NCBI GenBank assembly: GCA_050084515.1
Contig: CM114271.1
Coordinates: 17,484,001 to 17,548,000 of the forward strand
Origin: Blasia pusilla
Taxonomy: Eukaryota
Direction of reading: 5' to 3'
DNA length: 64,000 nucleotides
Each line of letters starts with the position of its first letter. The first letter of the stretch is position 1. The notes under the pieces were generated by a model. That model was given only the letters and a program-made list of their open reading frames with translations, made no database searches and was not told where the DNA came from. This document shows positions 4,883 to 47,406 of the stretch, in pieces. Made by a program: the position numbers and the translations under genes.

Positions 4883-5101
4883 TCAAGAGTTGGGAGGAAA
4901 CACCGCACTATAGATAGTGGCCGCCACTATGCCCATAACAGTACTCACCATATCATACATCACATGCCCAGCAAGGGACACATATCTTGGAGACCAATAT
5001 AGTCTCCATCCCTCAATCTCCTCCTCATGGAGAATCCAAAACTCGTGATAGTCATCTATGGGAGGGCCCTCCATGTGTTGAAATATTTTCTTCCATGCCA
5101 T
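4883..5101 (-). pseudogene. gag remnant of the DNMT-Gypsy family
   Basis: MAWKKIFQHMEGPPIDDYHEFWILHEEEIEGWRLYWSPRYVSL aligns by eye with LAWKGLFQHLEGPPMDDYREFRKDHVAEIEAWRQYWSPGYVSI of ORF 29015-29788. Confidence 0.85.
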
Positions 5102-17200: not shown

Positions 17201-19494
17201 TTTAGCCTCTTGTGGTGATTAGAAAGATCAAGGTATAGGATGTTGATGGAAGGTAATTCTTTGCCTCCATAAGCAGTCTTGAAAGTGAAAGAGAAATATG
17301 ATTTTATTGATTGTTCAATGTTATGAGCATAGGAACAAATTTAATTGTTTTATCTTCATTTTCATTTCATCTATCCATCAAGATTTGATATTGGAATAAA
17401 ATTTAATGGGACAAAAAATCTAATCCAATCTAATCCATTATAACAATAGGTAGATAAGTCAACCATCGACAAGAATAAATTTTGTGCCACCAGAATAAAT
17501 CAATTTCAAGTGTAGTCCATTGCATGGAAGCGCAAAGTGCATGAAGATGGAGTCTGATTGTATATTGAAAGAAGGGAAGATAAGAGTGCATTGAGTTATA
17601 GTCTTAGAATAAATTATCACTTTAGATTTTATCAACTCTTTAGGATAGCATCATTAATACTATTATCAACTCCTAGAGGCTATGCTAATCAACAAAATTG
17701 TTTTATATTTTTCTTAGATTTTGACTCAAAAGAGAGAGTCAAGCTATAGTTAGACTAAAAAAAAAAGAACCTAGAGTTAAGTTACTTCGAAGTGGTAGAA
17801 CTTATGATGTGATCTACCCATATACTTCCATGAACTATGGGTTGAGTTACATATAATGGTGAAATGATGAAAAAAAGTGAAGCCTTGCATGAGTACCATT
17901 TCAACAAATCACTAAAAAAAGAGAGTTGCAACCATGGCTTGCACCATGAAATATCATTGAGACGAAGACACATCTCAAAGAGCATGCCATAAGATTTCTT
18001 TACCTATAGAGAAAAAACAATGTTAGACGTAGTAACCCTTCACATTAGATGAATTAAGTAAAAAATAATTAATCCAACCATAATTACTCACAAAAGACAT
18101 TTATGTTGTTGTCTTTGAGTCATCTTCAATAAACGCATAGTGTGAAAGTTATTTTATACAAAATGGTTCATGGTTGTTAGAGACTTCTTGAGGAAAGAAT
18201 CTTGGTTCCACATGTAAACATCCTTATTCACAATTTACGGATGAGTTTTGCGAGAAAGGGCATGGTTGAATTTTCTAAGGATCAATGTCACATCTTAGAA
18301 AGCAGATAGATAGGTAGAGTTTTATCGTATTGACGACATAGAGAGTAAGTGGGCTTTTCAAGCATGTGGTATGTAGGATACTACCCATTATGGGCCAACT
18401 CAGTCAGAGACCGTACTTGATAAGTTGTCTATATGGTTTGTTGAAGGTATGGTTAAGGAGGTAGGCTCCGTGATTCTCCATAGGGAGGGCATTACGTAGT
18501 AGGAGAGTTTTTTTGCAATATGCCATTTTTGGTTATGTATCTTGATGTGATGAGATTTTCAAATCCACCCCAAGTTGTCGATCAAGTTCCAACTTGTTAG
18601 CACTATGCTGATCTATGAAAAGATGGGTGATCCACACTAACAGTCTACTATGGGGTGCAAAAGGTGGTGACACACGCGCCAATGCTGATTGGTAGTCCGC
18701 GTCCACAAACAAGAGGTTCAAGGTGTTGTTTCGAGGAGATTCTCCATGGTTGCACGGAAACGGACATGTCAATCCATAAGACGGACATGCCCAACAAGTC
18801 CTCCGCCTCATTTTTTCAGTACCCTAGTGGACAACACGGGCTTGGGAGATAGGAACGGGTGCAGGCTCATATTAAGGGAGGCGGGCAAGAATTGACTCAC
18901 ACGTAGCCCGTACCGGCTTGCCTTAAGCTAGCATTGGCCTACGACAACCCTTGGGCCCGTATAGGGTAAGCTCAAGGACTGCATAGGGCTCGCAACCACG
19001 CGCGCATAAGGATCGTGCAAGGTAGGCTAGGCTTGTGCAGGGTGGGCTCTAGGCCCACATTGAGTCCGCCTTGCAGACACGCTGCAAACCAATGCATGCT
19101 TAGGGCGGGCTGATGCGAGTCAATGCATGCTATAAAATGGGTGATGGATTTTTAGAGTAGGTGCGGGCTAGTCAAGCTTAGAATTGTCGTGCCATGGAGT
19201 TTGCCATAACATATGGATTAGTTATTTTTTATTGTGCAATAGAGTGATCACATGTGTGTGTTCATTCAAGTCCCACTCTCGTACTTGTCTCTTGTCATTG
19301 AGGGTGTTGGGTATCAAGTAGAGTTATGCTAGATGGGGATAGAGATGGTGTTGAGTTCAAACTCATTTTTCTTGTTGCTTGTTTCTGGATATAAGGTGGT
19401 TGCACAAGTAGGGACCATGTGTATGACCCAAGTTGTTATTAGCTTATGTGAGTCACTATAAGAGGCTAAGGGTTGAAGACTAAGTCACAATCAA

Positions 19495-19676
19495 ACTCAT
19501 TGGACACCGAAACTGCTATATTTGGTACTCATGCAAAGTAGGAAAACTTAATTTTGGTTAATTAGTTAAGCGCGATTATCTCAACTATGATTAGTTAATC
19601 ACGGTTAGTCTAACTCAAGACTATGGTTAGGATTAGGGGTAGGTTTGCTTGTACATATCCTATATAATTGAGAAGG
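19495..19676 (+). repeat. Fragment of the Copia LTR family found at 54340-59679 (opposite orientation)
   Basis: TTAGTCTAACTCAAGACTATGGTTAGG...TGTACATATCCTATATAATTGAGAAGG is the reverse complement of sequence in 54445-54620. Confidence 0.8.
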
Positions 19677-21517
19677 AGACCATCCTCCATTCATTGAAGA
19701 ATTTTGATCTCCATGGTGACGTGTGAGTGTAAGAGTCGTATCCCTCCATTTATGCTTCTTTAGCAGTTTTCTACAAGGGGAAATTAAAATGGAGTGTAGA
19801 TCAACAAGTTGAGTATGAGAGTCTATGGGAGGCATTCACGTGCATAAAATGGCGAATCATTGCCACTAATGCATGGAAGGATAGAGGCATAAGCATTCTT
19901 ATATTGGTATGAGGATCTGGATTAAGAGATGTTGAGGAAAGTTTGGGATGCGATGTCGCTTCATAACCACAAAGTCCACATTGAAGATGGTCTTCCAATT
20001 TTCAAAGGAGATTGAGCTCAACATGAGTAAGGATCATATTATGACCACATGTCTTAAGTTCTTGCGTGTACTTCTCCTCGATTCATCTTGAAGAAAACCC
20101 AATCTTGAGCTTTGCAAGTGCAAGACTTATATTGAGTCCCAAAGACTCAACCGCTTGTGTATTTTGTAGGTAGTTGAGAAGCCGCAAAGCGCTAATTGGG
20201 TCAATTCTACCAAGTGCATGCCATCTCCCTCTAAAGCCTCTCCCCAAGCCTCAACCAATCCCCACAAGTTGCTTGCGTATACCGGAGTGCCTTGGTTAAT
20301 TCCTCAAGGTGCGTCCCCTAGCTCAAACTTGAAACACGGCCAAAACATGCATCATAATTAGTTTTTGGTTCAAGGACTTGAGCGGGTAGAGAGGACGAGA
20401 AGAATTTCCCCCCCCATAAGTACTTGTGGGATTCTCTATGGGAACTCCACTTTCCCCATTGTCCCTCTCGGGCCTTTGATTTTCGCCCTCAACTCAAACA
20501 TGGTAAGCGACCTGCGGATCCGAGTTTGACTAGTTAATTATCCATCAAGATGCCTTGGCGGAGGCTTCATGCTGCTTATCCAACTCTCGGCTCCACAAAT
20601 GCATCGTGGATCTTGGACCCGCATTTCATATGTCTCATGGTTAGTGCCCATCTTGACTCCCCATTTGGTGTCTCATGGTTGTCTTTCCGCCCTTTCTGTT
20701 TCATGACAAATCTTATTTCATCTTGCCCATCTTGAATTGATTACTCATATGCTCCTTGCTTCTTGCCCTTGATCGACTTGGCGCTTGGCTCCAAGGTCTC
20801 AAATTGCATTCCTTGCCTCTATCCTAGCTTGCGAGTATCCATATCCCTTTCTCATCTAAGGCTAGTTACAAGACACCTACACATCTCCCCTAGCCTTAGT
20901 CTTGTGGTTGGTTTGGCCACCTTTCTAGTCTTGCGACTAGCTAACCTAGGTTTCAACTTTGGTAGATCGTACCAAGGTCTTTCCTCCTTAGGCCTGCAAT
21001 CATAACTCACTCCTTGTTTCCCTGCTAACGTGGGAGCCATAGACTTAGCTATTTAGGATGCCATGGGATTCCCACTAGAGTGGATGGGGAGGTGGAGTCA
21101 AAATAGACCTACACAGGCACCACCATAGATGTAGTGTGATCATTATGATCGATATGGTTATACGAGGGATAGGTGTTTCAAGCTTTTCCTAGAGGCACGT
21201 CCAAAGGTAGGCAAAGGTCATGGGGGCGGTTGAGTGGGTGGAGATCAAGGAGTGTATGGTCATGGTGATCATGGTAGAGTTCCACCAACAGTCAAAGGAG
21301 ATGGAGGACATGCATTTGTGGCTCATGTAGAGGATGCTACTATGGTGACTCATGACATTGTGAGAATGGCTCAGCCCTAGGGAGGTGGAGTCAAGATAGA
21401 TCTACATGAGAGGATTGATGGGCGTCAGGTCAGGGTTCCCTATAGCAATAATTCACATTTTGTGAGGCACTACACATCCCATCGATGGTGCTTTGATGAG
21501 TTTTTGGTACCCATAGG

Positions 21518-21604
21518 TAGAACATGTACGTTGAATCCTATTACAACTTAGATGGAGCCATAGAACATGTACGTTGACTCCTATTACAACTTAGATGGAG
21601 CCAT
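21518..21604. repeat. 43-bp tandem duplication
   Basis: TAGAACATGTACGTTGAATCCTATTACAACTTAGATGGAGCCA repeated twice with minor differences. Confidence 0.9.
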
Positions 21605-22204
21605 TTCATTAGGGATAGCCATCCTGGTATAACAGGATCCCATTGTTCTTTGCCACATATGGACTTGGCAACGGTAGAAGTTGGACCAAAAATGGTGTTT
21701 CGATTGGTTGCTATGATATGTGAGTGGATACCTAGAGATTACTACTTTTCTTGTGCAAGGTTGCACACGGATAAAGTGCATATCGATGGACATTCCCATA
21801 TCTACAGACTTATCTTCATCCCTAGGACGGAAATGTTCATATGGGCTAAGGTACCTTAGCATGCCCAACCCCACAACGTAGACCTAGGCTTGGCTAACCC
21901 ACAGCTAGTCTAGGACCCCATTCACCATTTCTTGCCATCCGTTTTGTAGCTGCATGGTGGGCCTGCAATGGGCCAATCCGGGCTTAGTGTGGTCCGGTGC
22001 AGGCTTAGTGCGCGCCGTGCATGGGCTTCATGCAGGCTAGGCGAGGGCTCATAGCCCGCACACCCATCCAATCTCTAACTGCCTCAAGCTCCCTTAATCT
22101 TAGACCGCACTCATTCCTACGTCCAAAGCCCACACGGGCCACTAGGGTACACAAAAAAATTGGGCATAGGACCTGTTAGGCATTTTCGTTTCCATGAAAC
22201 CTTG

Positions 22205-23480
22205 CTCATATGGAAGTAGTGTTTGAGGATGTGGTGGAAAACTACTCGGAGTAGGTGCTTGGGACATCCCTCACTCATTCTTCGTAGATTACGGCTACTA
22301 GGTTTGTTGATATGCTAACTAGACACACCAATGAGCAAGACATGATGACACTAGGTATGATGTTATTGGACAACCAAAGCGAGGTGTTCTCCTTGGTTAG
22401 CCCTACAAGTATGTTGTACCAACAATAGTGTGTGCTACTTGATTCGGAAGCATAACCCTTGATGTTAGGGAAGGCAACATTTAGCATTGGAGTTACAAAA
22501 ATATGATATTGAGCCATGTCCCTTCAAGATACATACCTCCATTGGGGGTATGTCACTCACATAGTTCATGACTCGAAAGGAGCTACTTGTCATACTCCAT
22601 CTAGAGCATTCTTTAGATAGTGCGATTGCACGTAGTCATACAATTATGACACCAAACTAATCGTACAATGTTATACCACCTTGATTACATCCTTAATTTT
22701 TGGGAGGAGACGGTTTCTTATCACCCAAGATGGCGATTAGGTGACAATTGGGTAAACATCTACCCATGCTATTTGCAAGGCGTGATGGTGGTGGTAGTCT
22801 AAGAGGTCAAACAGTAACCACGTTGGAAACATTCATATGTAGTTTTAGTATTAAGATGTCATATGCATAGATGCTTTGTTTACAAACAAAGCATCTATGC
22901 ATATGACATCTTGATACGAGATATTCCCATAAAGAGATATGCCATATTGGATATCTCTTCCCATGGTATGAAGACCTCTTCACTATTTTGGGGTATGAGC
23001 GTTGACTTGTTGAGGAGTGTAGATGAGCTCATGAGCCAAGCGTGGAGTTGTGCATCCATTTTGGAGTTAATAGAGTTAAATGATTGTCGAACTCTTCAAG
23101 GGGATACTTAAAACTCTTGGATACCATACATGTTGTGTGCCAATTTTTATATGAGGGTGTGAGAGTGCTTAATCTCTTCAAAGGGATAAGCATAAGGTTA
23201 GTTGAAGTACTGTAGGTTGACATACAAATGCAATTATACCTTTATGTTGAGAGAGATGAAATTGCATGCCGATTCTTATTTTTCTATGTGGATAGTACAA
23301 GTGATCCAAGCTTGGAAATTGCATATTCGAGCTTAAGATGTATGTTAAAGAGATTTGCAAGGGATGCAACCACCATATTGGTGTGTGATGGTTGATTTAG
23401 AGGGTGGCACATGTCGTCTCTGATCCCCTCTATTGATGCAATTCCTATAGGATAGTGGTTATATCCCAGATGTCTTTAAG
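22205..23480 (+). mobile_element. Second decayed copy of the DNMT-Gypsy family (protease and DNMT motif I remnants)
   Basis: VLLDSEA*PLMLGKA at ~22432-22477; EGVRVLNLFKG at ~23153-23186 at the same relative position as in the 27-36 kb element. Confidence 0.7.
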
Positions 23481-26400
23481 GTAGTAGAACATTTAATGTC
23501 GATATGATGTGTGCTACTTGGAGTTAGGGAACCCAATTTCCAATTAGGGGGTTAATTGTGTGGTCTTGGTGTACATGCATGCCGGTACTTTATTATGTGT
23601 GTGGATCTATCCGTATGTTGGGAAGATCGGTGATGTTTGGGGTTTAGATGTGATTAACGATGTGGATTATGTAGCCACGTGTATGTTGTCACGTCTTATT
23701 TATGCAACCTCAAGAAGTTTTCCTTTATCTCTTGAGGTTATCCTCTAATCTCCTTCAAAGGACCAAAGGTGCTCTACCAAAACTTATCAATCTATCCTAT
23801 AAGACGTGACATTGTTTAGGGCTATTGTGATGGAAAGATCTATTTTGGCTCTTCCTAAGTGTATAAAAGGTGGGGAGATGGCTCTCACTGACTATGTTTA
23901 TCATGTTGAGCCTTCACAACACTCATCCTTTTAGGTTTTGGTTGGATCTTGAGTGTTAAAGTATGGATTCCCTTATCACATAGGATTGACATGGCTTGAT
24001 GACTATACGTAGATTTGAGACTGCGTTTGGCCATGTGAGCCATTTTTACTTCAAATTTACATGAGAAAGATAGATAGGGCATGGGGATTTATTTTTTTGG
24101 TAGGTGGGTAGTTGAGTTGCCTGGTTGGAGAGCCCCTTCAAGATATATTGATAGGATTTTGTGTTTGTTTATGCTCAAAAGGCCATACGTAGAAGCGCTC
24201 CCATTTTTCACAAAATTTTGCTAGTGGCGGATGGATATAAGGAAGAAGCAAAGTTTTGTGGAGCATTACTTGAGTATAGCACATAGGGAGAAAATGTTAG
24301 AAATTTGGGAGAAAATGTTAGAAATTTGGGAGTAGTGAAGGATAGACATAAAATTTAGGGCAAGGCTAACCCTTGCTACCAACACAAGGGCTATCAAGTA
24401 AGGCCAATCAAAGATGCAAAAGCACAATCGAAAAAAGAAAGGGTATGAGGATGCAAGGCTATAATAGTGTAGATGAAGGCATAACCTTGCGGAGTTAGTC
24501 GAGAGTGGCTTTAGATAGATGTCTTCAAGTAGGAATGGACGAAAGGGCATGCTTATGGTAGCTGGAGGTTAAGTGCGTCTCCATAGCGGCGTCAACAAAC
24601 ACATGCATACAGTCTCATTAGCAAGCTTGATAGAGTTATTGGAGCACATGGAAGGAAGTGGAGCCATATATGTCGTTAGGCTCCATGAAGTATGTAGTAG
24701 ATAGTGGGCTACATGCATCATTGGAGCATCCGATTTGGTACGTGACCTACCATAGTAGAGGGATCAACCACGTACATGGCCTGCAAGATGGTAGTAGGTT
24801 GATTCGAGGGTAGATCTTGAGTATTGATTGTTGTATGACTCAACTTGATTGTGACCCAATCTTGTGATGTGAGTGGTCATGATTTGTTATGAGATTTTCC
24901 TATGACGTAGGTTGTAAATTGTCTCCCAACTTACTAGTACAGTGGTGAGTTGTGTGTAGATGAGTGATAAGCACCAACAATCCATATTGGAGTGCTAAAG
25001 ATGGTGATGCACATGCTACTATTAACAATGAGTCCAAAATTATAAATGTGAGATTGGACTTGTTGTTTGAGGAGGTTTTTACATCGTCCAATGTAGTTAT
25101 TGGACCGTGTAGAGGAGTGATGGTGCACACGTTCAAGTTATCGATTTGAGTCCTATTCCCATGTTTGTCTCTTCTCATTGAGGGTATTGGGTGGAGCATA
25201 TGATAGATAGGTGTAGTCATGGTGTTGAATGAAGACTCTTTTTCTGTGTAGCATGTGGGTATAGAGCGGTTGCCCAAGTAGGGGTCTTGTGTATGACTCA
25301 ATATTATTATTAGCTTAGGTGAGCTTGTACGGGAGGCTCAGGGTGAGCTCACAGGTTTATCGTCATCAGATTTCTTTAGCATAGGTGAGCTTGTGAGTAG
25401 TGAGGGAGATTGAGGGTGAGTATATGGGCTTGAGCCTGTGAGGAAGGGTTGTAATAAACATTCTTCCAAGGTTTGAAAAAGGGTAGTTTGAGTAGTAGGG
25501 GAGGAGTTATGAGGCATGAAGTGAGGTGTTGAGGGATTTTGAGTGAGGAACCACCTGATCCTTAGTTGGATTTTAACCATTGGATAGCGAGTCTAGTGAC
25601 ATGATCATAGATGGAAATAGTGGCAAGTGGAGAGATATGGATAACGTGAGCCATAAGGGAATTTCTTGAATGTGGTAGGTACCAAAAAAATTGATGATTT
25701 CAACCAAGAATTTGACATGTAATATGATTTCTAAGAAATACAAGCCTTGACGCAATTTAACCCTTTCATGGGATGAAGGGTTTGTTACAACATTTGTAGG
25801 AACTTCCAATGGATGATTTTTGTGAATTATGCTCTTTATATGATGTAGAGATTGATGGTTGGAGGGTGTATTGGGCTCCATATAATTTCTCTATCGGTGG
25901 TTATGAGACTTATGATGGGATACTGAGAGCGACTATACCTACACCAAGATTGAGGACCAGATGGAGATGATGTCATATATGGTAGGGGATGCCTAAGACC
26001 TCTAATACTAGTAGGCCACCTAGTTTCAACCCAATAATGGAGTTCTTTTGAGAGTTGGGGAGGAACTACGAAGGCATGTTGATCAATAAGTTGAAGTTTC
26101 CACAAGAATTTTAAGAGAGATCATGTGAGAGTCCATTGGAGGCATTCATGTACATATGAAGGCTAATCATTGCTACTCATTGAATGATAGATGCACATGA
26201 AGTTCAATCTTGGTATGGGATTTTGGACCGAGACAACATTGCATCTCAAACAATGGAGTTCTTTTGGGATGTAATTTTGTTGTACAACATCACATAGCCC
26301 ATATTGAAAGTGGTCTTCAAGTCTTCCAAGAGGATTGGGCTCAACATGAATGAGAAGCATGTAATGACCACAAGATTTCCACTAGAGTCAACATATTTTG

Positions 26401-27141
26401 ATAGCCCCATAGGTGCCCCAACATGCATTCGTACTACGAAAGAGATTTGGTGTGTCGAGAGAGCACAATGGGTATCGTGAGCCCATGAGGCAACAACCCA
26501 TACAAACATATTTTGACTAATAAGGGTTGGGTTTGTTTTTGGACATTTGGTGGATCCCACAGTCATAGGGACTAGAGACAACATGGGCGCCTCACATTGC
26601 TCAAGAGCCAATTTTGATGGTACCATTGTAGTTATAGTATGATCATTGTTATAAGTATGGTCATATGAGAGATACGTTTATTTTCATAAGATACACCCAT
26701 ATGGAGGCCAAGGTCCTAAGAGTGGTAGAGTTGGTGGAGACAGAGGAGGTTTCAGCGATGGTGGTAGAGCTCCACCACCTATTAGAGGGGATGGAAGATG
26801 TGCACTCGATGTATTGCTCCTCACTTGGATCAATCAATTGGAGCACATGATTATTGCCATGACAATGATGTAGCCAATGCTCGGATCCGAGCATTGGATG
26901 TATCATTGTCACGTAGCCGAGGCCATCCACTTCACCTTTAGCCTCCACAACATATCAAGATACAGGGGTTTATTTCACTAATATAGGATCTATATGTAGT
27001 GTGACATAGGTTTGTATTTCCACTTTGATGACTCAAGACAATGTGAGAGTAATCAAACCATGGGGAGGTGGAATGGAATTAGACCCACATTAGTGGAATG
27101 ACAATCGCAAGCGATAGGCTAGGATGCACTTCATACACCAT

Positions 27142-27507
27142 TGTCATGACCATACGGATTATGTCGTAGAGTATGGTGTGCTGGTAGAGGCCATTCCTTA
27201 TGTAGGACCGTAGTGGCTTGGTAGAGATGTGGTTCCATACATAGGGTTGGGGGTTACTTACTTGGGGGTGACTTTCCTAGTAGGGCCCGCTCTTAGGTTG
27301 GAGGATATAAGGTGGCTTGCCCTCAAAGAACAGTCAGTTCTTTGAGTTGAGCCTGTTGCGTTGGGAGTTAGCCTTGGTAGTGAGTAGAGCTCTTGGCTAT
27401 GGTGTTTCCCGCAAGCTTCGACCTAGATTCTCCCATCGTGGAGTGGGTTTGGCTCGATTGTATGTGATTGTAAACGTGTTTTATGACAATAGTTCTTTCA
27501 CGGATTT
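27142..27507 (+). repeat. Terminal repeat A1 (copy of A2 at 35687-36053)
   Basis: Near-identical to A2 by eye (about 8 differing sites); contains TATAA at 27306-27310. Confidence 0.95.
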
Positions 27508-27508
27508 C

Positions 27509-27521
27509 ACTCAAAGAACTG
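27509..27521 (+). promoter_or_regulatory. Putative self-priming primer-binding site
   Basis: ACTCAAAGAACTG is the exact reverse complement of CAGTTCTTTGAGT (27335-27347), which starts 29 nt after the TATAA; no TGG-type tRNA PBS follows the repeat. Confidence 0.7.
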
Positions 27522-29014
27522 GAGTAGATCGATGGTAGCTTCGATTGTAGATCAGTAGGATCTGGTTAGGGCTGATTGTGTACTCAGCCGTGGATGTTCG
27601 TGGCTTGTGGCCTATGTTGGAGGTATGAATCAGGTGCGTGGTTGGTTGGGAAAGAAGCGCCTTGCTGAGAGCTTTCCAATGCGCTGTAGATCGCCGGATT
27701 TCGTCAAGGGAGTTGGAAGTTATCAAGCATTGAAGATTCTGGTCGTGTTCGACAGTTTTCTGATGTGGAGAGCTTGGAGTGCGGAAGCTGTGTTGAAGTT
27801 CATCCAGATCGGGTGAGAGGTTCCTGTTGCTACTCGTATTGTGATCTCCTGTGAATCTATCTGCTCGAGTGCGTGGAGCGTTGCGGATTTCTGCGTGCAT
27901 GAAACTTGGCGGAAGCGCTGTCGGATTTGCGGTTGTAGAGGTGTATGGACAGCAAGTTTGTCTGATTTTTAGCCCGGAGTACGGAGCTCGGTTGTAGCTG
28001 AGTTTTTGTGGGGAGATAGCTATGGTGGTCAATTGAATTCTGATCGAAACAGATTTGATTTCGGTCACGTATTTGTGAAGTAATTTTGATCGAAATTTCG
28101 CGGACTAGCTCAAGGTCCGGCTATGGTGGGCAAATGGATCGGAGGGGCTGGTTGGTTGGTGACTCGTTCATTGTTGGAGACGCCTATCCCGTTGGGGGCG
28201 CCCTGGTTGGACTTCTCTCCATAGCGAAGCATGGCGAAGCGTGGCGAACGGGGCGATAGGGGCATGTCTCGGCGTTTCGAGGCTTCGAGGCAACTCGTGG
28301 TAGCTCGGGGCGAGTGGGCGTGAGAGGCGGAGTAAGGAGCAAGGAGCAAGCAAGCAAGCTTGCTTGCTTGGGCGTGAGGCAATTTTTGCAGGATTTGGGA
28401 TTTGAGTTTTGCATAACTGGTCACACATCTTTGGGCTATTCTGCCTGGAGGACGCTTAACTGCTGAGTTCTTAACTATGCCAGTGTACAGACTGTTGTAG
28501 CTCATTTGGTGCTGTTCGGAGATGTGTTGGGTGCTTTATGCATCTCAGGTTTTTGGTTGATGTACCTCTAGCGCATAGTACGGTGTAGCCTCTCCATACA
28601 AGTGATATTTTCAGGTGCTGCGAGTTCGACTAGCACGTCATCGACCCGCGGCGGAGTAGCTATTGCGTTAGAATTGTGTGGTGGGTTTTGTGGATTCAGG
28701 GGGCACCACGTTTGGTGGATTGTGTTACCTTGATTTCCATTTGCGGTTGGAGGGTTGTCGTTGGACTTCCTGTGTCTGGATCCCCTCCATCGTGCTTCTT
28801 GCTTGCGCGCCCATTGTTAGGGTTGACGCTGATTTCCAGAGTAGTGTAACTCCTGTGTGCTACCGGTAGTGAGGCTGGAGGGATGACGAGTAGATTGTGG
28901 GAGACTTCTTGTGGTGATGACAAGTTAGGTTGCCTACACCCATAGCTAGTAGAGCTAGAATAGTATAGCGACATCGACGTCACTTGGTAATTTGGTGGTG
29001 GTGCGGCATCGGCG

Positions 29015-29788
29015 TTGGTCATCACGGAGCTGTCGGGTGGTCTGGTTGGGGACCGTGGTGCGGACAGTGGTGGTTTCACACGGAGTGGATTTACGTATCG
29101 GCTACCTTTTCCACTTCCGACGGTTGATGAAGAGGAGGACCAGGGTGTTCCAAACACCGAGTCTTCTACGTTGTTATCGAGTGTTGCAGCTCCATTGATT
29201 TGGGACATGGACGGTGGATATGGGGCCATGAAGGGCCCACGACGATACTCGGGTGCAGTGGGTACCATTGAGTTGGAGGACTTCATGCAGGAGTTTGATA
29301 CGTGGTGTGATATGCAGATGTTGCGGAACGCCACGTTGTTTACATCCTTCTTGGCTTGGAAGGGGTTGTTTCAGCACTTGGAAGGACCACCCATGGATGA
29401 TTACCGTGAGTTTAGGAAGGACCATGTTGCTGAGATTGAGGCATGGAGACAATATTGGTCTCCAGGCTATGTGTCTATCACCCATGGTGGTATTGGTAGT
29501 AGTGCTCCTACTATGCCAGCCAGCCCGACGTTGAGTGGTACGAGTACGAGCCGGAGTGGGGGTACCAATGGAGGTACTAGTGGGGGTACTAGTGGAGGTG
29601 GTAGAGGTGGTAGGGGTGGTAGAGGTGGACCAGTGGTTGGAGAGCCTACGGTGGCTACCCCTACCACTACGACAGAGTCAGCTATGGTTGCCAGGATTGA
29701 GCAGTTGGAGCAGAAGTTGGCTACTATGGTCGGTATCCAAGATAGATCAGGTTCGGGAGCAGGGCTTCCACCTCTTATGGAGGGATGA
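29015..29788 (+). CDS. gag-like ORF of the DNMT-Gypsy element (start uncertain)
   Basis: 257-aa ORF with RYSGAVGTIELEDFMQEFDTWCD...FQHLEGPPMDDYREF, upstream of the protease; a homolog lies at 4883-5101. Confidence 0.7.
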   Translation: MVITELSGGLVGDRGADSGGFTRSGFTYRLPFPLPTVDEEEDQGVPNTESSTLLSSVAAPLIWDMDGGYGAMKGPRRYSGAVGTIELEDFMQEFDTWCDMQMLRNATLFTSFLAWKGLFQHLEGPPMDDYREFRKDHVAEIEAWRQYWSPGYVSITHGGIGSSAPTMPASPTLSGTSTSRSGGTNGGTSGGTSGGGRGGRGGRGGPVVGEPTVATPTTTTESAMVARIEQLEQKLATMVGIQDRSGSGAGLPPLMEG

Positions 29789-30289
29789 TCTCTCTTATAT
29801 GGCGAGTGCAAAGACAAAGGTTGAGGCATCGCCTACGAAGATTAGAGGAGCCACTCGGCGTCGAGCCACTCGGCGTCGAGCCACGTGGTGCTCTGTGGGA
29901 GTTGGACCCATAGAGGGGTGAGGCAGCTAGGCTTCCCGGTCATTCTTGTTATCGAGGTGCTTAGGACTCCATCCATGGTTCCTACGCAACCTATTGAGCC
30001 GAGTGGGGATCGAGGCATCTACATCGCGTGTAGTAGACACGGATGCAAAGATCAATGCAAGATTGCGGATGGCAACTTCAGTGTTGGGATCCCCATTGTT
30101 TTCGACCACGGAGCGATGGCTTTAGGAGTTGACTTAGCTCTGTATTTCGATTAGCGACCACGTTGTGTGAACGTGGGGGTATTCTTCGCTACACGTGTTG
30201 AGGTGGATGAGGGTGTTGCGGTGGAGTGACCCTCTATGTCGGGAGTAGCATTGAGTACCGGTGCTACTTGGCGGCGAGCGGCGAAGATG

Positions 30290-30740
30290 GATGCATTACC
30301 GGCCCGGCCAGCCATTGATCGTGAGAGGCTTACACTGGTGTATGTATGTTGGACAACCGGAGTGGGATCTTCCGATTGGTGAGTCCTACAAGACAGTGTA
30401 TAGACCAGATAGAGTCTTGTTAGACTCGGTGCCCAACCTTTGATGTTGGGAAAGGCATATTGGTTTGGGTATTCGGAGGTCGAGCTTGAGCCTTGCCCCA
30501 TTCAGATTCAAACATCACTTGGAGGAGCCAATGATAGGTCTCAATTCATGACACGGGAGAAGTTTTTGCATGCAGTTGAGACCGGATGATGCGAATGATA
30601 GCTCCCGGTTGGGAGTATCTGCATGTAGTCACATCGGCCGAGTCGTATGATGTACTAGTTGGAGGAGCGATTGTACCCGATGGGTTTTCAGATGGATTCT
30701 TCGGATCGAGACAGCGTCTTATAGACCTGGTTGGCAGTCC
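30290..30740 (+). pseudogene. Retroviral-type aspartic protease (frameshifted)
   Basis: RVLLDS(G)AQPLMLGKA at ~30411-30457 and YDVLVGGA at ~30645-30670. Confidence 0.8.
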
Positions 30741-31124
30741 GGGGATGGACGTATGAGCCAAGTTCTGTGAGATTTATTTCGGGGCTCGACAAGGAGGGTC
30801 TTCCCAACAAGTGTTAGCATATGTGGCTGGTTTTAGTAGAGTAGTCACTTGGCCAGGAGACTTTTTGGAGGGTAATGTTTCTACTATGGATTCTCTGCGC
30901 ATGAGGAGGAAGAGGAGGTCCCTATTTTTGCAGCAGTGGCATCCTCATCGTTGGATGTGCCACTTTGGAGTTCAGCGGTGCACTACGGCAGAGGCGATCG
31001 CCTAGTGCAAGAGGCTTGGTGTGAGGTGTTATACCTCACGAGGAAGAGGAGGCCCCACGGCGGACTCCTACTTCTGGCCTGATTGGGTTATCCCCTTTGG
31101 ATACTACACCCATTGTATGGGTAT

Positions 31125-32085
31125 CCGCGAGGGCATTTGTGTGTTAGATCTCTTTGGTGGGATTAGGTTTGGTTTGGTTTGGCCGCAATGTTGCAGGCCG
31201 GTATTCTGTCTTGGAGATACGTGTATGTGGAGCGAGATGAGACGGCCTGAGAGAGTCTCATCCCGACATATTGGTCGATTGATGCGGGTATCCTGAGTTG
31301 TTGCCGCCATCAGCTATTCGTGGGTACCGGCGTGCTTTTACCATCACACATTGCATTGTTGGGGGCGCAGGACCTTGAGAGAATTGGTCTTGTGGATTTG
31401 GTGATTCTTTGGATGGCCATGTCGGGTCATACACGTCTTTGGTCGGGATGAGGGATTACATGACCCTAGGTCTCGATTGTTTTGGGAGATGTTACGGGTG
31501 TTACAACATCTTCAGGTTCATCAGGCACGTGCTCTAGCTTACATTCTGGAGAATGTTCCATTGTTGGGTGACACTCGGACTCGGATGATGGCGAGTGTTC
31601 ATGAGGTCTTGGTCTTGGATTGGACCAGCGGTGTTGTTGGATGCTGTGCGAGTTGGCTCAGCGTGCACATCGTCCACGCTTGTGGTGGACAAACTTGTTG
31701 CCTAGGATGGTTCTACGTCGAGCATATGATGCAGTGCAGCGGGATCCTCGCCTTACAGTGGATAGTATCTTGGATACTGGGCGACTTTCCCAAGTGGTGA
31801 GGGTTATTGATCGGTCACCCATGGGTGGTGAACCGTGTGGGCGACCTAGGATGGCACTACCCACATTTGTGAGTTTTCCTCGTCACATGCCTACAGGGAA
31901 GGTGGTCTGGGGCTTGTATGGGATTCTCATGTGCGACAGTTGGTAGAGCCTAACGCTGATGAGAGAGAGCGTGCGATGGGATTTGCTACTGGTGTGATAG
32001 TGGTTGCTTCTATTTCTGAGGCTTCACGACGTCATGTGTTGGGTCAAGGCCATGGACCTGAATTGTTTGACTTGGATTTTGAGTC
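31125..32085 (+). pseudogene. C5 cytosine DNA methyltransferase domain, DNMT3-like, within pol (frameshifted)
   Basis: Ordered motifs: I VLDLFGGI (31141-31164), IV GWPC (31411-31422), VI ILENVP (~31543-31560), VIII AHRPRLWWTNL (~31665-31697), IX ERERAMGF (~31960-31984), X RRHVLGQ-AMD (~32027-32057). Confidence 0.9.
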
Positions 32086-32449
32086 TTGGTATGGCCGAGC
32101 GTCGACTTCGGACTATGTCTGTGGGTCTTCCACCCCTTGTAATGAGCTCGATGGCTAGGGACGGTAGAGGCATCGGTGGGGCGAGGAGAGTAGTATTTTG
32201 CATCCTTGGAGTAGATGGGATGTAATGGTGGGCATGTGGAGTTGGTTGCTCATCTTTGGTGGAGGAGTTATTTGCTCAGATGATGGTGTAGCTAAGGGTG
32301 TATCATCTTGTGAGGGGGTTGCGTAGCAGCCAATGGCATCATCCTCTCCCTCTAGTATGCCAGTGGAGGAGACTTGGGAGCCATTACTTGGGCCCAAGCT
32401 TATGGGAGGTGAGAAACGACGCTGACCGCGGTTCCTACGTGCTTATAGG

Positions 32450-33400
32450 AGTTGTTTTGCCTTTAGCATGAAGGAGTTGGGTTCTCTGGTTGGACCCGGT
32501 ATACGGATTGATTTGGCTAGTGATACGCCAATCTTCCATCGTGCCTATCGATATAGTGATATGGAGAGGACTTGATTGAGTAGGACGTTGGACCTTTTGG
32601 AGGCTGGATTAGTGGAGTTGTCGCATGGAGAGTATGCATCGCCCACTTTGTCATGCCTGCTAAAAAAGGATATGTATGGCAACTACACGGATAGGCGGAT
32701 GTGTGGAGATTACCGTCCTATCAATCGGCAAACCAAGGCCGATAGGTATGCCATGCCTACACTGAGGAGATCTTTGATGTGGTGGGACAGCAAAGATTTT
32801 CAGTTTTTGGATCTTGAGCGGCAGATACCATCAATTGCCGATTCGGGAGAGTGACAAGGCCAAGACAACATTTTGGGGTGTCAACTCTCATGGCAAGGAT
32901 TGTTTGTACAGTGGAAATTCTTACCCTTTGGGTTGAAGAATGCACTGCCGAGTTTCAAAGAGTGATGGACAGGATCCTAGCAGGTTGGATTTTGTTCGGT
33001 GTTACATTGATGATATCTTGGTGTTGAGAACACGGTGGAGGAGCATCGATACATTTGCAGATGGTGTTTGAGCGGTTGAAAGCTCATGGTCTACGTTGCA
33101 TCCAGGAAAGTGTAAGTTCTTCCATGAGGATGTTGAGTACTTGGGTCATGTGATCTATCCGGTGGTTTGGGAGTTCAACAAGCAAAGGTGGAGGCTATTG
33201 CACTTATTCGCGTCCGATAGATGTGAGTAGAGTTCGAGCATTCATGGGATTGGCGAACTACTATCGGAGGTATGTGAAGGGATTTAGTGCTATGGCAAAG
33301 CCTTTGAACCAATTGCTGAAATCAGATCAAGAGTGGCATCGGGAGATGATCGGGAGAGAGCTTTTGTGGAGCTTAAGGCCAGTTGGTGGCGGCGCCTATC
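32450..33400 (+). pseudogene. Ty3/Gypsy reverse transcriptase (frameshifted)
   Basis: RRMCGDYRPINRQTKADRYAMP, LPFGLKNA, YIDD (33003-33014), VEYLGHVI, VRAFMGLANYYRRYVKGFSAMAKPL. Confidence 0.95.
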
Positions 33401-33419
33401 TTGAGGAGACCTATCGAGG

Positions 33420-33790
33420 GCGCCCATTTTAGTTACACACCGATTGGAGTAGGTTGGGACTTGGAGCGGTGTTGACACAACATGATGATGAGCACATGGA
33501 GTTTGTGGTGGCCTATGCAAGTCGTTCGAATAATGCAATGGAGTCGCGCTATAGTTCATATGAGGGAGAGTGCTTGGCGAGTGTGGGTGTGGCACACTTT
33601 AGGTGTTACTTGTTTGGCACCACAGTTTACCCTTGTTATTCTTGATCACCGGCCGCTCAAGTGGTTGATGGAGTCGGACAAGCTTACAGGAAGCTTGCAC
33701 GGTGGGCTCTTATCCCTCTGAGTATGACTTCCAGGTGGTACATAGACTGGAGTTGCCAACCTTGATCTTTGATGGGTTGAGTAGGAACCC
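33420..33790 (+). pseudogene. Ty3/Gypsy RNase H
   Basis: LHTDWSRLGLGAVLTQ...VVAYASRSNNAMESRYSSYEGECLA...DHRPLKWLM...DGLSR. Confidence 0.9.
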
Positions 33791-34149
33791 ATGTACTAGC
33801 CAAGAGGATACAAGCGGGGCTAGATGGCATGGCGAGGTTGATGAGAAGATGGTGCCAGGTTGGCATGCATCCGCCTTTTATGTTGGTTAGGTGGACTCTA
33901 GTATGGAGGACCACATGATATCTTACTCTAGTCGGAGGGTAGATGGCCACCTTGAGATCCTAAGGTTGGAGATGGTGGTGCGGATCAGCGTGATATTCAT
34001 GATGATGCGTTGGTGTTGGAGTTCCCTTGACCAAGAGGGTGCCAGGCATAGTGAGTGCCAAGGAGTGAGACCGTGTTCTTCAACGTGCTAAGAGGTATCG
34101 ATTGGAGGGAACACATATTCTCGCGTGTGGGAGGATGGTAGAGTACAGT

Positions 34150-35240
34150 AGTGCCACATTTGGCTCAGAGAGAGCGCATTGTGCGACATGCCCATGAGGA
34201 GTTGGGACATTTTGGGGTAAAGCGTCGTATAGCTTACTCCTTGGCCAATATTGGTGGCGTGGCATGCATACTCAGTGCAGTGATTGGTGTCACGTTGTAT
34301 GGTTTGTGACCGGGTGAGGGCATCATTTAATGCCCCTACACCACAATTACACCCCTTGCCTATTATGGGGTTGGGTTACCGTTGGAGTGTGGACTTTATG
34401 GATATTACCGTTGGTATGCGACATCATCGATATGTGTTGGTGATGGTGGAGCACTTCTCCAAGTGGATTGAGTTGGTGGCATTACCGGACAAGGCAAGTG
34501 AGGAACGGCGTATGCGTTTGGATAGAGTGCTTAGTCATTTTGGTGCACCGGTGAAGTCTTGACCGACCGGTCTGAGTTTCAAGGTGAGTTTCAGGTCTTG
34601 TGTGACAAGGCGTTGATTGATCATCGGACCACGTCTCGAGATCATCCGAGGCGGATGGTTTGGCTGGCGTGTGGTTGACGGTGAAGAGGGCATTGCGCAA
34701 GTATGGCCTCTGAAGGGCATCTTGGAGACTATGATATTCGATTACCATGGTTAGCCATGGGGTATAGGTTCGATCGCCAAGCATCCTTGGCTTCCTTCTC
34801 ACCTTATTTTACATTATCGGCCGAGATCCGGACTTGCCAAAGACAATTGTCGGGAGTCTAGTGAGGTGGTGAACCTTGATGACCCAGAGATGTGGATGAG
34901 GGTGTGTTCTCAGCGGGCGGAGCTCTTAGGAGAGTTATGCCAACAACCTTTGAGAATCTTGCCATTGCTCAACACAGGGGATACGTTGTGGTATGCAACC
35001 ATTCGGGGTGGAGGTTATCGACCATCGATTCAGAGGTTCCATGTGGGGACTATGTCTATTTGCAGCAGATTGCCCGACAACGTTGGATGTGACGGCAGCC
35101 GCACTATTTTCTGAGTCGTGAGGTGTTAGCTTCCGGAGTTCTCATGTTGGAGGGTCGTGATGGAGTTGTTTGGAAGGACCATGTGCGTAATTGTGCGTCA
35201 TGTCATCTTCCAAATGTGGATGGTATCTTGTTGACCCAAG
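34150..35240 (+). pseudogene. DDE integrase (HHCC zinc finger + rve core), frameshifted
   Basis: HAHEELGHFGVKR...CMVC, LHPLPIMGLGYRWSVDF, YVLVMVEHFSKWIELVAL, VLSHFGAP...LTD...EF, VKRALRK. Confidence 0.9.
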
Positions 35241-35268
35241 CTTAGCCATGATACGTGCTAGCTTGAGG

Positions 35269-35408
35269 TGCATGTTGTGTGGGTCTGCTGTAACGCGGCC
35301 CGTATGTTGGTGTGTGATCGGTGTTCTAGGGGTTGGCACATGATGTGTTTGACTCCACGTTTGGATGTTGTTCCTCTTTGGAAGGTGGGTTTGTCCTCGA
35401 TGTACTTA
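35269..35408 (+). pseudogene. C-terminal PHD finger of pol
   Basis: CMLCG...MLVCDRCSRGWHMMCLTPRLDVVP...GRWVCPRCT* gives the C4-H-C3 spacing across two frameshifts. Confidence 0.85.
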
Positions 35409-35570
35409 GGAGAGGTAGATGACTTGATCTTTGCATGATATGGATTACGGATGTGCGACTAACGATGGGGCAACCTAGCACCCGGCCTTCGATTCGGGCA
35501 CCCAAGAAGGTGTATAGCATGTAGTAGATGTATAGGGCTACCAGGAGTTAGAGGACCTAACCGCTTGATT

Positions 35571-35580
35571 AGGGGGCGAG
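35571..35580 (+). promoter_or_regulatory. Polypurine tract
   Basis: AGGGGGCGAG abutting the start of repeat B1. Confidence 0.65.
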
Positions 35581-36161
35581 TTGTGGTACACTTGCGTTTG
35601 TGGATACTCTCGTCTATGTTATGTATGTATGTGCGTATGGTATGTCGGCGATGTATGTTGTATGACGATGTGGATTCGACGACATTTGTCATGACCATAC
35701 GGATTATGTCGTAGAGTATGGTGTCTTTGGTAGAGGCCATTCCTTATGTAGGACCGTAGTGGCTTGGTAGAGATGTGGTTCCATATATAGGGTTGGGGGT
35801 TACTCACTTGGGGGTGACTTTCCTAGTAGGGCCCGCTCTTAGGTTGGAGGATATAAGGTGGATTGCCCTCAAAGAACAATCAGTTCTTTGAGTTGAGCTG
35901 CTATGCGTTGGGAGTTAGCCTTGGTAGTGAGTAGAGCTCTTGGCTATGGTGTTTCCATAAGCTTCGACCTAGATTCTCCCATCGTGGAGTGGGTTTGGCT
36001 CGATTGTATGTGATTGTAAACGTGTTTTATGACAATAGGTCTTTCACGGATTTAAGTTGTGGTACACTTGCGTTTGTGGATACTCTCATCTATGTTATGT
36101 ATGTAGGTGCGTATGGTATGTCAACGATGTATGTTGTATGACGATGTGGATTCGCACGACA
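35579..36161 (+). repeat. 3' composite repeat B1-(TT)-A2-(A)-B2
   Basis: B1 35579-35684 matches B2 36055-36161; A2 35687-36053 matches A1; the B1/A2 junction reads GACA-TT-TGTC. Confidence 0.95.
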
Positions 36162-36900
36162 CCATGGATGGTACCTAGACAGTTGGTTGTACATACTAAT
36201 GTTATGGATGCATCAATATCACAAGGAGTTGAAGAGAAAAATCCCATATCGGATTAGGTGGAGCCAAAATATATGGTGGAAAACTAAAATTTATTAAGCT
36301 CCATTTGTTTCCACCATGGACTTGGTGATGGTGGGAGTTGGGCTAGTTGAGGTATTTCAATTGGCTGGCACATTGTGTAAGCATGGATCGAGAGGTTACT
36401 ACCTCTTTGTATAGAGGTGGTTCACGAGGAGGTGGTGGACTAGCTTGCCCTTAGAGCATGTACTTGGGATGTTGCCTATTGGCTTGTGGCAAATTGTAAC
36501 TGCTAGGTTGATGGTAGATATGCCAAGTAGACTCACAATAGAATGAGCCAAGGTGAGATGAGGCTAGGTGTAGTGTTCTTGGAGAACTAGAGTGGGATGC
36601 TTTTCTTTATTTTTTTTGGGTTTTGTATACCCTAAGTATGGCATCTTACTTCATTCGGGAGCGTAACCCTTTATGTTAGGGAAGGCAGGAGTTTGGAGGT
36701 GGGGTTATGAAATTGAGAAATTGAGCCATGCCTCTTCCAAAGAAAGACCTACATAGGATGTGTTTCATCCACACAATTCATGAATCAAGAAGGGTTAGTT
36801 GTTCGAGTCCAACGAGAGTATGCACTACCAAGGATTGAGGCGTTGATATGGCTCCATTACAAATTTATTTTTTCCAAGAGCGATTACTTCACAAGTCCAT
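36162..36900 (+). mobile_element. Older decayed relative into which the 27-36 kb element inserted (continues left of 27141)
   Basis: Protease remnant ILLHSGA*PFMLGKA at ~36643-36688; the rejoined flanks resemble the decayed sequence near 21380-21500. Confidence 0.6.
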
Positions 36901-45147: not shown

Positions 45148-47406
45148 GAGTCGCCGAGCTCACGAATTCTCACATGTTGGTTTCATCATCGGTGCAGGTA
45201 GCGGGGCTCTTTTTCCTGCGAATTAAAGTTGCCGAACTGGCTTTGCTGAAATGGGTCTTCTGGTTGCTCTCCACTCGTCTGGGCACCTTCCTCTTGAGTG
45301 GAACTCGAAGTATCGCGTCCCAGTTTCCTTACCTACAGAGCTTTCCCGACCTACCGCAAAGTCGGCGTGAGCAGATCGTGACGGGCTGGAGTAGTAGCCC
45401 CTTGTCTAACCTCCAGAAACTCTCCAAGTTGGTCAGAGGCTACACCATGTTCGTCTACTATTCCACGGTACACTCCTCGATTGCCCACGATTCAAGCCTA
45501 TTCCAGTTCGCAAGTTTTTGGGTTCACTTCCGAGTTTCAGACTTGAGATTGCAGAGGCAAATGCCGGAAGTTCTCACGCGTGTCAACTGGATATTTGTTA
45601 TTGAGTCGTTTTGTATGTCCTTTAGGTGGACGCGGCAGGCTGGAATCCAGCTTGGAATGCGATTGGTTACAGTGGACCCCGACTTGAGTACGCGAAAAGC
45701 GACGTGTTGACGCCGAGGCCATTGGAGGGAAAAGTTCTTGACGTAGAATCTGTGGGTGACGAGGAGCTCCGCTCTTTTCTAGCAGGCGGGGATTTACCAT
45801 CCTGGACGACTTGTCCCATCTACGCCGCTTGTCCAGGCAAAGCGAGGCTGGAAAGAAGATCATTGCCGTGAGTTGTGATGCCGTGGTGGTTGGGTCGGGA
45901 TCAGGCGGAGGAGTGGTTGCCGGGGTCCTCGCAGAAGCCGGCAAGAAAGTTTTGATCGTCGAGAAAGGGCAGTATTTTGCCAGGGATGACCTCACTCTGC
46001 TAGAAGGGCCCTCACTTGCCGGGATGTATCTAGGAGGAGGTGTTCTGGCGACGGAGAGTGGGAACGTCGCGATTCTTGCTGGATCGACTGTTGGAGGCGG
46101 GTCAGCTGTGAATTGGTCGGCATCCTTCCGAACTCCCGACCACGTCCGCCGAGAATGGGCCGAGGATTTCGGGCTCTCGATGTTCGCTGGCAGTCGATAT
46201 AGAGAAGCCATGGATGTTGTCTGCTCGAAGCTCGGTGTGCACACCGTCTGTGAGCAGGAAAGTTTCCAGAATGCGGTTCTCAGAAAAGGCTGCGAGAAAA
46301 TGGGGTATGGCATGGAAGATATTCCGAGAAATGTAACGGGTCAGCATTCCTGCGGATTTTGCGGCTTCGGATGCCGAAAAGGAGCGAAGAAAGCCACCTC
46401 TGAGACTTGGTTGGTGGATGCTGTGAATTCCGGATCTCGGATTTTGGCTAAGTGTGAAGTTCGTGGGGTCCTACACCGCAGAAATTCCAAGCGTGGCTCA
46501 GAGAAGGAACGCGAGGCCGTGGGTGTAGTGGCTTCCGTAGGCAAGAACACACTATTATACATCCAGGCCCGTGCTACTGTGATCTCAGCCGGATCGCTCT
46601 GCACCCCACCACTTCTGTTGCAAAGTGGTCTACGAAATCCGAACATCGGGAGGAACCTGCACTTGCACCCGGTGCTCATGGTGTGGGGTTACTTCCCCGA
46701 GGGCCAAGGAGCCAAGGGAGTTTGTTATGACGGGCCGATCATGAGCGCAGTGTCCAAACAGTTCGCCAATTGGCAATCACCTTCGGCTTCTTCTGCATAC
46801 GGCAGTCTCATCGAAGTTCCCATTCTGCACCCTGGCAGCTTCGCCGCAGTGTGTCCATGGATCTCGGGTGCCGATCACAAGGAGCGCATGAGGAAATACT
46901 CCCGTACAGTGCACTTCCTCATCCTACACAGAGATCGGGGGCAGGGAGGAGTCGTGAAAATCAAAGGTAAATCTTCGGAGATCACGTACAGCGTCGACCC
47001 TCTAGATGTGGAGTCCATGAAGGACTCCTCCGAAGGGGCTTTGAGAGCTCTGGTGGCGGCGGGAGCCGTGGAAATTGGCACGCAACACCTTACTGGCGAG
47101 ACATTCCAGAGTTTGAACTGCAAGCCCGAGGAATTGGAGGATTATCTAAAGAGAGTTCGATCACAAGGTGTAAGGAAACTGGAAGTTCCTATGGCCTCGG
47201 CCCACCAAATGGGATCTTGCCGCATGGGCGCTAATCCCAACACGTCTGTGGTGGATGGCGGCGGAGAGACGTGGGAAGTGGAGCGATTGTTTCTGGCTGA
47301 TGCCAGTGTTTTCCCCACGGCCTCGGGCGTAAATCCCATGATCACGGTGCAGTCCGTAGCCTTCTGCATCGCTCAATCTGTGCTGATCAAACTGGAAAAA
47401 GAATAG
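43912..47406 (+). CDS. FAO: Long-chain fatty alcohol oxidase (GMC oxidoreductase, FAO family); exons 43912-44169, 45198-45467, 45626-47406; one apparent 1-nt deletion near 45780
   Basis: QMRALSALCDTFVPS (exon 1), LSTRLGTFLL...PYLQSF (exon 2), NPAWNAIGY, FAD motif CDAVVVGSGSGGGV, AGSTVGGGSAVNW, SAHQMGSCRMG, DASVFPTASGVNPMIT; two phase-0 GT-AG introns. Confidence 0.93.
45113..45142. repeat. (CT)n microsatellite in FAO intron 1
   Basis: Direct reading. Confidence 0.9.

Follow-up and report, generated by a model that had tools for sequence, protein, structure and literature searches.

Split direct repeats of the order A1-B1-A2-B2 define the layout of the PAT-like, Ngaro and VIPER retrotransposons in the published descriptions consulted. 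These elements encode a tyrosine recombinase together with a reverse transcriptase (RT) of the DIRS type, and the same is true for SymbioDIRS-Dnmt3, whose Pol additionally contains a Dnmt3 domain (de Mendoza et al. 2018, PMC5890265). The main text of the same paper also describes KnitGypsy-Dnmt3 from Klebsormidium nitens, a long terminal repeat (LTR) Gypsy element with Dnmt3 in Pol, which has Gypsy domains and DIRS-like A-coding-B-A-B repeats. Here, we analyzed a window of 64 kb of Blasia pusilla contig CM114271.1 (the whole stretch of DNA under study, to which positions refer unless stated otherwise). It contains an element of 9,020 bp (27142-36161) with only repeat A at the 5' end and B-A-B at the 3' end. 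The element is very probably a dead copy of a highly amplified Ty3/Gypsy retrotransposon of the organization (gag-protease)-Dnmt3-like methyltransferase-RT-RNase H-HHCC/DDE integrase-PHD, from a green-plant clade with the A...B-A-B layout as a family trait.

The likeness to KnitGypsy-Dnmt3 concerns the Dnmt3-type methyltransferase within a Gypsy Pol and the A-coding-B-A-B repeats, and was established from the published description, not from sequence. The hosts differ, namely a charophyte alga in the one case and a liverwort-like land plant in the other. Moreover, the main text on the Klebsormidium element gives no mechanism, no anatomy of the polypurine tract (PPT) and the primer-binding site, no end sequences and no att-like palindrome, whereas, for the Blasia element, a mechanism is proposed and the other features are described below. 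No mention of KnitGypsy was found in the literature searched beyond de Mendoza et al. (2018), and the literature on split direct repeats, Gypsy and integrase comprised, by title, only recombinase elements or general reviews. An earlier note on this DNA had implied that the combination of split repeats and a DDE integrase was novel. This was overstated, as the combination had been in print once before, as a brief remark on Klebsormidium (PMC5890265); the Blasia element is a further case, in a land plant and at very high copy number.

The repeats were analyzed within the window by a repeat search and BLAST, and their divergence was quantified by global alignment. Exactly two copies each of A and of B are present. 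A1 and A2 are 95.9% identical over 369 columns, and B1 and B2 are 95.3% identical over 107 columns (BLAST); the global alignments contained 15 differences per 368 columns for A and 5 per 107 for B. Because the two pairs are similarly diverged, the four repeat pieces look to be of equal age. The termini of the element read TGTC...GACA and are thus of the TG...CA type, with the 4-bp flanks CCAT in this one copy. The chance of a 4-bp flank match alone is about 1 in 256. The A at position 36054, which the earlier note had placed as a spacer between A2 and B2, is present, but it is better taken as the last base of A2; its counterpart in A1 is the C at 27508. With this base counted in A, A2 adjoins B2 without any extra base, and the junction is a plain joint of U5 end and U3 start. 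Otherwise, the repeat coordinates of the earlier note were correct to within 1 nt (repeat search, BLAST, direct reading), direct reading of the one copy confirmed the CCAT duplication and the TG.../...CA ends, and the A...B-A-B layout proved to be real and to match the split direct repeats of PAT/Ngaro elements.

The surroundings of the element contain an older repeat of about 70% identity, whose order is kept on the two sides of the insertion (27022-27101 corresponds to 21339-21418, and 36647-36821 to 22436-22609). Therefore, the segment 27142-36161, including B2, entered as one unit. In its full extent, this old direct repeat comprises 19269-22609 on the one hand and 25149-27101 plus 36647-36821 on the other hand; the element sits in the second copy, and the first copy represents a rough empty-site paralogue. 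The left flank also harbors a palindrome at 26860-26911, 230 bp before the element, with 26-nt arms that are 88% complementary and without a loop.

Next to the repeats, the element has signals for the priming of both DNA strands. The PPT lies directly before B1, and thus, U3 begins with B. A1 contains the motif TATAAG at 27306-27311, and a start of the RNA is predicted near 27335. The segment 27335-27347 (CAGTTCTTTGAGT; 13 nt) begins 29 nt downstream of the TATA motif and is a perfect complement of 27509-27521, just past A1. A self-complement of this length was reached in 0 of 5000 shuffles, and the two segments are paired in both the minimum free energy fold and the centroid fold. On sequence grounds, this is the geometry of self-priming, and 27509-27521 is a candidate primer-binding site. 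A primer site of the tRNA type was not identified: the first TGG occurs 12 nt past A1, and no tRNA gene is present in the window. With the primer site just after A1 and the PPT just before B1, U5 ends with A, and the LTR defined by reverse transcription is B-NN-A. The earlier note had likewise let the PPT abut B1 and the primer site abut A1 and had derived a unit B+A; all three statements were borne out, the first also in two relatives (L048 and L028, see below). A hairpin at 27322-27347 begins just before the predicted start of the RNA and spans it (arms CTCAAAGAAC and GTTCTTTGAG, loop of 5 nt); in its first arm, the core of the primer site (27510-27519) recurs.

Self-priming is known for Tf1/Sushi and has been predicted for Tcn1, which occurs in mosses and club-mosses, according to the text of Neumann et al. 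(2019, PMC6317226). The 13-nt fold-back complement at the position of the primer site is shared with these chromoviruses. In contrast, Tf1/Sushi and Tcn1 have ordinary paired LTRs and a chromodomain, whereas the repeats of the Blasia element are permuted and its Pol includes a methyltransferase and a PHD finger.

The joint of B1 and A2 forms the palindrome GACA-TT-TGTC, which equals the two ends of the integrated element set side by side. The pattern GACA-NN-TGTC recurs in the metagenome locus L028, with the spacer AT, and in one contig of sequencing run X7, with the spacer GC; in the latter, GCACGACA-GC precedes the start of A. A variable spacer (TT, AT, GC) with constant flanks fits selection on the flanks.

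The interior of the element is a decayed Gypsy polyprotein on the plus strand with many stops and frameshifts. Its domains were analyzed with Pfam on six frames, with X at stops, and by tblastn with proteins of relatives. A word-index search yielded 13 proteins out of 3,322 candidates, and three intact relatives (P0001, P0002, P0003) were used for the domain comparison. The closest proteins, P0001 and P0002 (about 37% identity), contain DNA_methylase, RVT_1, RNase H, Integrase_H2C2, rve and PHD domains. The order in P0002 is protease (663-711), methyltransferase (953-1137), RT (1443-1596), RNase H (1685-1789), H2C2 (1925-1977), rve (1996-2090) and PHD (2300-2344). P0002 is collinear with window positions 31665-35375, with a best E value of 1.3e-74, which was obtained for its residues 1965-2335 against the integrase region (34284-35375). 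The methyltransferase parts of P0001 and P0002 align to 31411-32050, and the best matches of the P0002 methyltransferase among solved structures were DNMT3C/3A/3B (E 4e-9, versus 1e-5 for M.HhaI). The longest open frame, in contrast, matched neither Pfam nor, by tblastn, the gag of P0002, and gag and protease are putatively assigned in the window from position alone. The three minus-strand frames gave no Pfam match.

The HHCC residues and the D, D, E triad of the integrase are invariant in 3 of 3 relatives, and a tyrosine recombinase (Phage_integrase) was found neither in the six frames of the element nor in any of the three intact relatives. The earlier note had reported an HHCC plus rve integrase and no recombinase, and both hold, the former by Pfam and by tblastn to P0002; however, it had overlooked the Dnmt3-like methyltransferase and the PHD finger in Pol. 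P0003 (3330 aa) has no Pfam methyltransferase match where the others have one and contains about 270 extra residues past the PHD finger.

The coding strand of the element is rich in G+T (A 0.21, C 0.18, G 0.32, T 0.29), which leads to long spurious frames on the opposite strand. The usual bias of retroelements is toward A and thus opposite to that of this element. Hypermutation was considered as the source of the G+T richness and dropped, because the differences to the contigs of run X1 go both ways (A>G 59, G>A 51, C>T 47 and T>C 48 places). With transitions balanced between copies, the G+T richness is a property of the family and not the result of hypermutation of the window copy.

Taken together, the element has the RT-RNase H-integrase order of Ty3/Gypsy elements, a Gypsy-type RT, an HHCC plus DDE integrase (broken in the window copy), TG...CA ends with a duplication within the 4-6 bp of this class (one copy), a PPT before the 3' repeat and a candidate primer site after the 5' repeat. 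It lacks two complete identical LTRs at both ends. The split direct repeats A1-B1-A2-B2 are shared with the DIRS order, whereas an encoded tyrosine recombinase was not found. To our knowledge, DIRS-order elements make no target-site duplication, whereas CCAT is present on both sides here (n=1). Compared with PAT-like, Ngaro, VIPER and SymbioDIRS-Dnmt3 elements, the Blasia element thus shares the split repeats and, with the last of these, Dnmt3 in Pol, but it differs from them in its DDE integrase, its Gypsy RT/RNase H, its TG...CA ends with a flank duplication, its PPT and its primer site. Both features of KnitGypsy-Dnmt3, the Dnmt3-type methyltransferase within Gypsy Pol and the repeat order, are present.

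Table 1. Positions of the features of the Blasia element in the window and of the 3' ends of two metagenome relatives in their own loci.
Feature	Position	Strand	Basis and remarks
Left flank duplication copy CCAT	27138-27141	.	Direct reading; same letters at 36162-36165
Repeat A1, starts TGTCATG	27142-27508	+	Repeat search, BLAST, alignment; proximal U3, R and U5 of the RT-defined LTR
Candidate self-priming primer-binding site ACTCAAAGAACTG	27509-27521	+	Perfect complement of 27335-27347; starts 1 nt past the repeat
Longest open frame, 265 aa, putative gag by position	28991-29788	+	
Dnmt3-like C5 cytosine methyltransferase domain, frameshifted	31100-32200	+	Pfam DNA_methylase E 0.0014, under the curated cut-off
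Reverse transcriptase and RNase H, across three frames	32430-33820	+	tblastn with P0002 1199-1615 and 1517-1963; Pfam RT_RNaseH E 1.8e-15
Integrase, HHCC zinc domain and DDE (rve) core, broken	34100-35130	+	Pfam rve E 0.0018, under the cut-off
PHD finger, integrase C-terminus	35283-35384	+	tblastn; Pfam PHD E 0.0008, under the cut-off
Polypurine tract AGGGGGCG, adjoining B1	35571-35578	+	Direct reading
Repeat B1 (distal U3), ends ...CGACGACA at 35684	35579-35684	+	Repeat search, BLAST, alignment
Palindrome GACA-TT-TGTC at the B1/A2 joint, proposed integrase site	35681-35690	.	Direct reading
Spacer TT between B1 and A2	35685-35686		Direct reading
Repeat A2	35687-36054	+	Repeat search, BLAST, alignment
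Repeat B2, ends ...CACGACA at 36161	36055-36161	+	A2/B2 is the joint of U5 end and U3 start
Right flank duplication copy CCAT	36162-36165	.	Direct reading
3' end of L048	B 10279-10457, A 10458-10809, B 10810-10994		G-run PPT abuts B1
3' end of L028	B to 3151, A 3152-3542, B 3543-3678		G-run PPT abuts B1

Relatives of the element were found in a single metagenome scan, from which 80 loci were kept. Only three of them (L048, L045, L028) belong to the clade with methyltransferase and PHD finger; L048 and L045 contain the methyltransferase, and L048 and L028 contain the PHD end. In both loci with a PHD end (2/2), a G-run PPT is followed by B, A and B. L028 and L048 are 76.7% identical up to the end of B2 and do not align past it, which shows that they are separate insertions that each end at B2. 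Alignment-based scans of viral contigs and genome contigs revealed no relative. A search with the methyltransferase domain yielded 57 proteins out of 2,871 candidates; many of them also contain rve and PHD domains, and the named ones are from Marchantia polymorpha, Haematococcus lacustris and Monoraphidium; neither this search nor the word-index search yielded a sequence of K. nitens. As these relatives range from chlorophytes to Marchantia, the clade is widespread in green plants. Because the PPT-B-A-B end is present in 2/2 metagenome relatives and the same layout has been published for KnitGypsy-Dnmt3, the A...B-A-B layout, judged from the sequences compared, is a family trait. Locus L048 also contains three 191-bp tandem repeats (4438-5010) directly upstream of the protease.

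The abundance of the family was assessed with the contigs of four sequencing runs (X1, X3, X7, X12), which were placed on the window at a likeness of at least 90%. The numbers of contig pieces placed on the element were 221,207 (X1), 3,612 (X3), 93 (X7) and 90 (X12), and 24 loose contig ends were listed, with 2,570 more beyond these; such contigs are not a census of copies. They show that the family is very abundant in the plant. The X1 depth was 0 at 26500-26843, and the bins at the two edges of the element had 0.144 and 0.086 of the adjacent depth, compared with expected values of 0.134 and 0.087 if the element ends at 27142 and 36161. In one X12 contig, 255 nt of unrelated sequence precede 27141.

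From this anatomy, we propose the following replication cycle. Repeat A would carry the promoter (TATAAG), R and U5, and the RNA would start near 27335. Its first 13 nt would fold back on the site past A1 and prime the minus strand, as in Tf1, and the PPT before B1 would prime the plus strand, so that reverse transcription would yield ordinary B-NN-A LTRs at both ends. The U5 end of the complementary DNA (cDNA) would then be connected to its U3 start, as happens in two-LTR circles, and this joint would be the A2/B2 joint of the integrated element. The DDE integrase would assemble on GACA-NN-TGTC within U3 and nick after each CA, and the opened molecule would insert with a 4-bp target duplication. 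Opening at the LTR beside the primer site alone would give A-interior-B-A-B with TG...CA ends. This would be the sole permutation that keeps promoter, R, U5 and primer site on the left and PPT, U3 and R on the right, and hence the only one able to replicate again. Every step after reverse transcription is one that we infer. The earlier note had already suggested closure of the cDNA into a two-repeat circle and its opening by the integrase at an internal site, and this mechanism is plausible. The standard scheme of reverse transcription with two jumps never copies B2, and therefore, B2 could arise only if the left and right ends of the cDNA were joined.

There is a precedent for internal cleavage by a DDE integrase, because the integrases of prototype foamy virus (PFV) and of HIV-1 reportedly cleave two-LTR circles at their palindromic joint (Delelis et al. 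2005, 2007). The proposed likeness lies in the cleavage, by a DDE integrase, of an internal palindrome formed by two adjacent ends, which gives a processed linear DNA. However, the retroviral palindrome is the joint of U5 and U3, and its cleavage restores the ordinary linear genome, whereas the palindrome of the Blasia element lies inside U3 (B/A), and its cleavage would permute the genome circularly. We regard an intermediate with joined LTRs that is opened by the DDE integrase at the internal palindrome as a serious candidate, with a probability slightly short of even. The explanation as a whole, comprising the identity of the element and the mechanism, is the best that we can offer, and we see the chances for and against it as balanced.

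The permuted layout could also be generated by the RT itself. In that case, the joined termini would be copied from the internal B1-NN-A2, a linear cDNA from the start of A to the end of B would result from template jumps, and this would be integrated in the ordinary way, as has been proposed for PAT, Ngaro and DIRS elements. Such a route would be in agreement with several features: split direct repeats typify elements whose internal repeats are said, in the accounts consulted, to couple with the terminal ones, TGTC...GACA resemble ordinary integrase ends, and the differing spacers at B/A would fit a joint that is remade in each cycle. However, the positions of primer site and PPT give B-A LTRs, and B2 would never be copied. 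In addition, no second purine tract precedes A2, and A2/B2 is exactly a U5 end followed by a U3 start, as expected of joined full-length ends. A cDNA permuted by the RT is thus an unlikely source of the layout, albeit one that deserves attention. Far less probable is integration by a tyrosine recombinase, be it encoded by the element in a gene that escaped detection or provided in trans by DIRS/Ngaro-type elements of the same genome, with a DDE integrase that does not set the layout. All other known A-coding-B-A-B elements encode such an enzyme in the published accounts consulted, but no Phage_integrase match was obtained in the six frames, the intact relatives or the plus-strand flanks of L048, the HHCC and DDE residues are conserved in the relatives, and TG...CA termini and a 4-bp duplication at the flanks are typical of integration by a DDE enzyme. 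The least probable explanation, and one hardly to be expected, is that an ordinary two-LTR element was rearranged once at this locus or was misassembled. Only one complete copy with both ends is available, and misassembly is conceivable in a highly repetitive family; however, the two relatives with a PPT-B-A-B end come from other sources, the layout has been published for Klebsormidium, A1/A2 and B1/B2 are equally diverged, and TG...CA ends, matching flanks and a collinear older repeat surround the element.

Several observations weigh against the proposed opening of a joined intermediate by the integrase. Both ends and flanks are readable in one copy only, so that the 4-bp duplication has n=1. 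The flank match extends to the 7 nt ACACCAT (27135-27141 and 36159-36165), of which the first three are the end of B2 and are present in B1 as well; this could hint at microhomology with the target instead of a clean duplication, or be a chance match. The 5' half of the layout is confirmed in the window only: none of L048, L045 and L028 has a 5' end with repeat A, and L048 contains neither A nor B in the 10 kb upstream. The B/A palindrome is degenerate in L048, and GACANNTGTC is not rare in the window, with 3 matches versus 1.14 expected and at least 3 in 13 of 100 shuffles. The primer site and the RNA start were derived from sequence alone, and the run data consist of contigs, in which no circle, linear intermediate or RNA end was observed; none of the listed sequencing runs is recorded as RNA. 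The model also predicts dead permutations, i.e. A-B-A-interior-B, A-interior-B and solo A-B. Two-LTR circles are minor by-products in known retroelements, and an obligate route via a circle would be unusual.

The window contains further mobile elements and one gene. A relic of an older related element is present on the plus strand at 23288-23700. It consists of a PHD finger (23288-23473), a G-run PPT (23541-23551; TTAGGGGG, with the same PPT core), an abutting B-like stretch ending ...GATGTGGATT... and an A-like start TGTCACG; a TATA box lies near 23860, and a search for a second B downstream found none. Fragments of a related element on the minus strand are located within 328-1112, namely methyltransferase motif I (933-1112) and a piece of RNase H (328-444). 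This element has a 76.6% DNA match at 4977-5100 and is cut by the window start. A Ty1/copia element (RVT_2, Retrotran_gag_2) lies on the minus strand at 54632-58431, and a Harbinger-type DDE_Tnp_4 fragment lies on the plus strand at 12037-12498. An open frame of 548 aa on the plus strand (45760-47403) encodes a long-chain-alcohol oxidase (GMC oxidoreductase), with best matches in the liverworts Riccia (63%) and Marchantia (62-64%). As its homologues have about 780 aa, the N-terminal part of the protein must be encoded in another exon.

Split direct repeats have been considered a hallmark of tyrosine-recombinase retroelements, but in Blasia and in Klebsormidium they are paired with a conserved DDE integrase. 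The anatomical details added here, i.e. PPT, self-priming site, U5/U3 joint and palindrome, turn an unexplained remark into a testable model, and the high abundance of the family and its relatives from chlorophytes to Marchantia make the question of the layout directly testable. There are also consequences for annotation: software for LTR detection that expects two equal LTRs will mis-annotate A...B-A-B elements, and a Dnmt3 gene carried by such elements can be taken for a host gene. Joined LTR ends are regarded as a dead end in retroviruses. If the A...B-A-B layout is made in every cycle, the elements use joined LTR ends and an integrase site inside the LTR. Tentatively, and with rather more doubt than conviction, we suggest that the green-plant Gypsy clade with Dnmt3 and PHD may have relocated the site recognized by its integrase, which would then be a palindrome within U3 instead of the tips of the LTRs, and may integrate obligatorily from an LTR-LTR joined (circular) intermediate, so that a DDE life cycle would have converged on the layout of tyrosine-recombinase elements.

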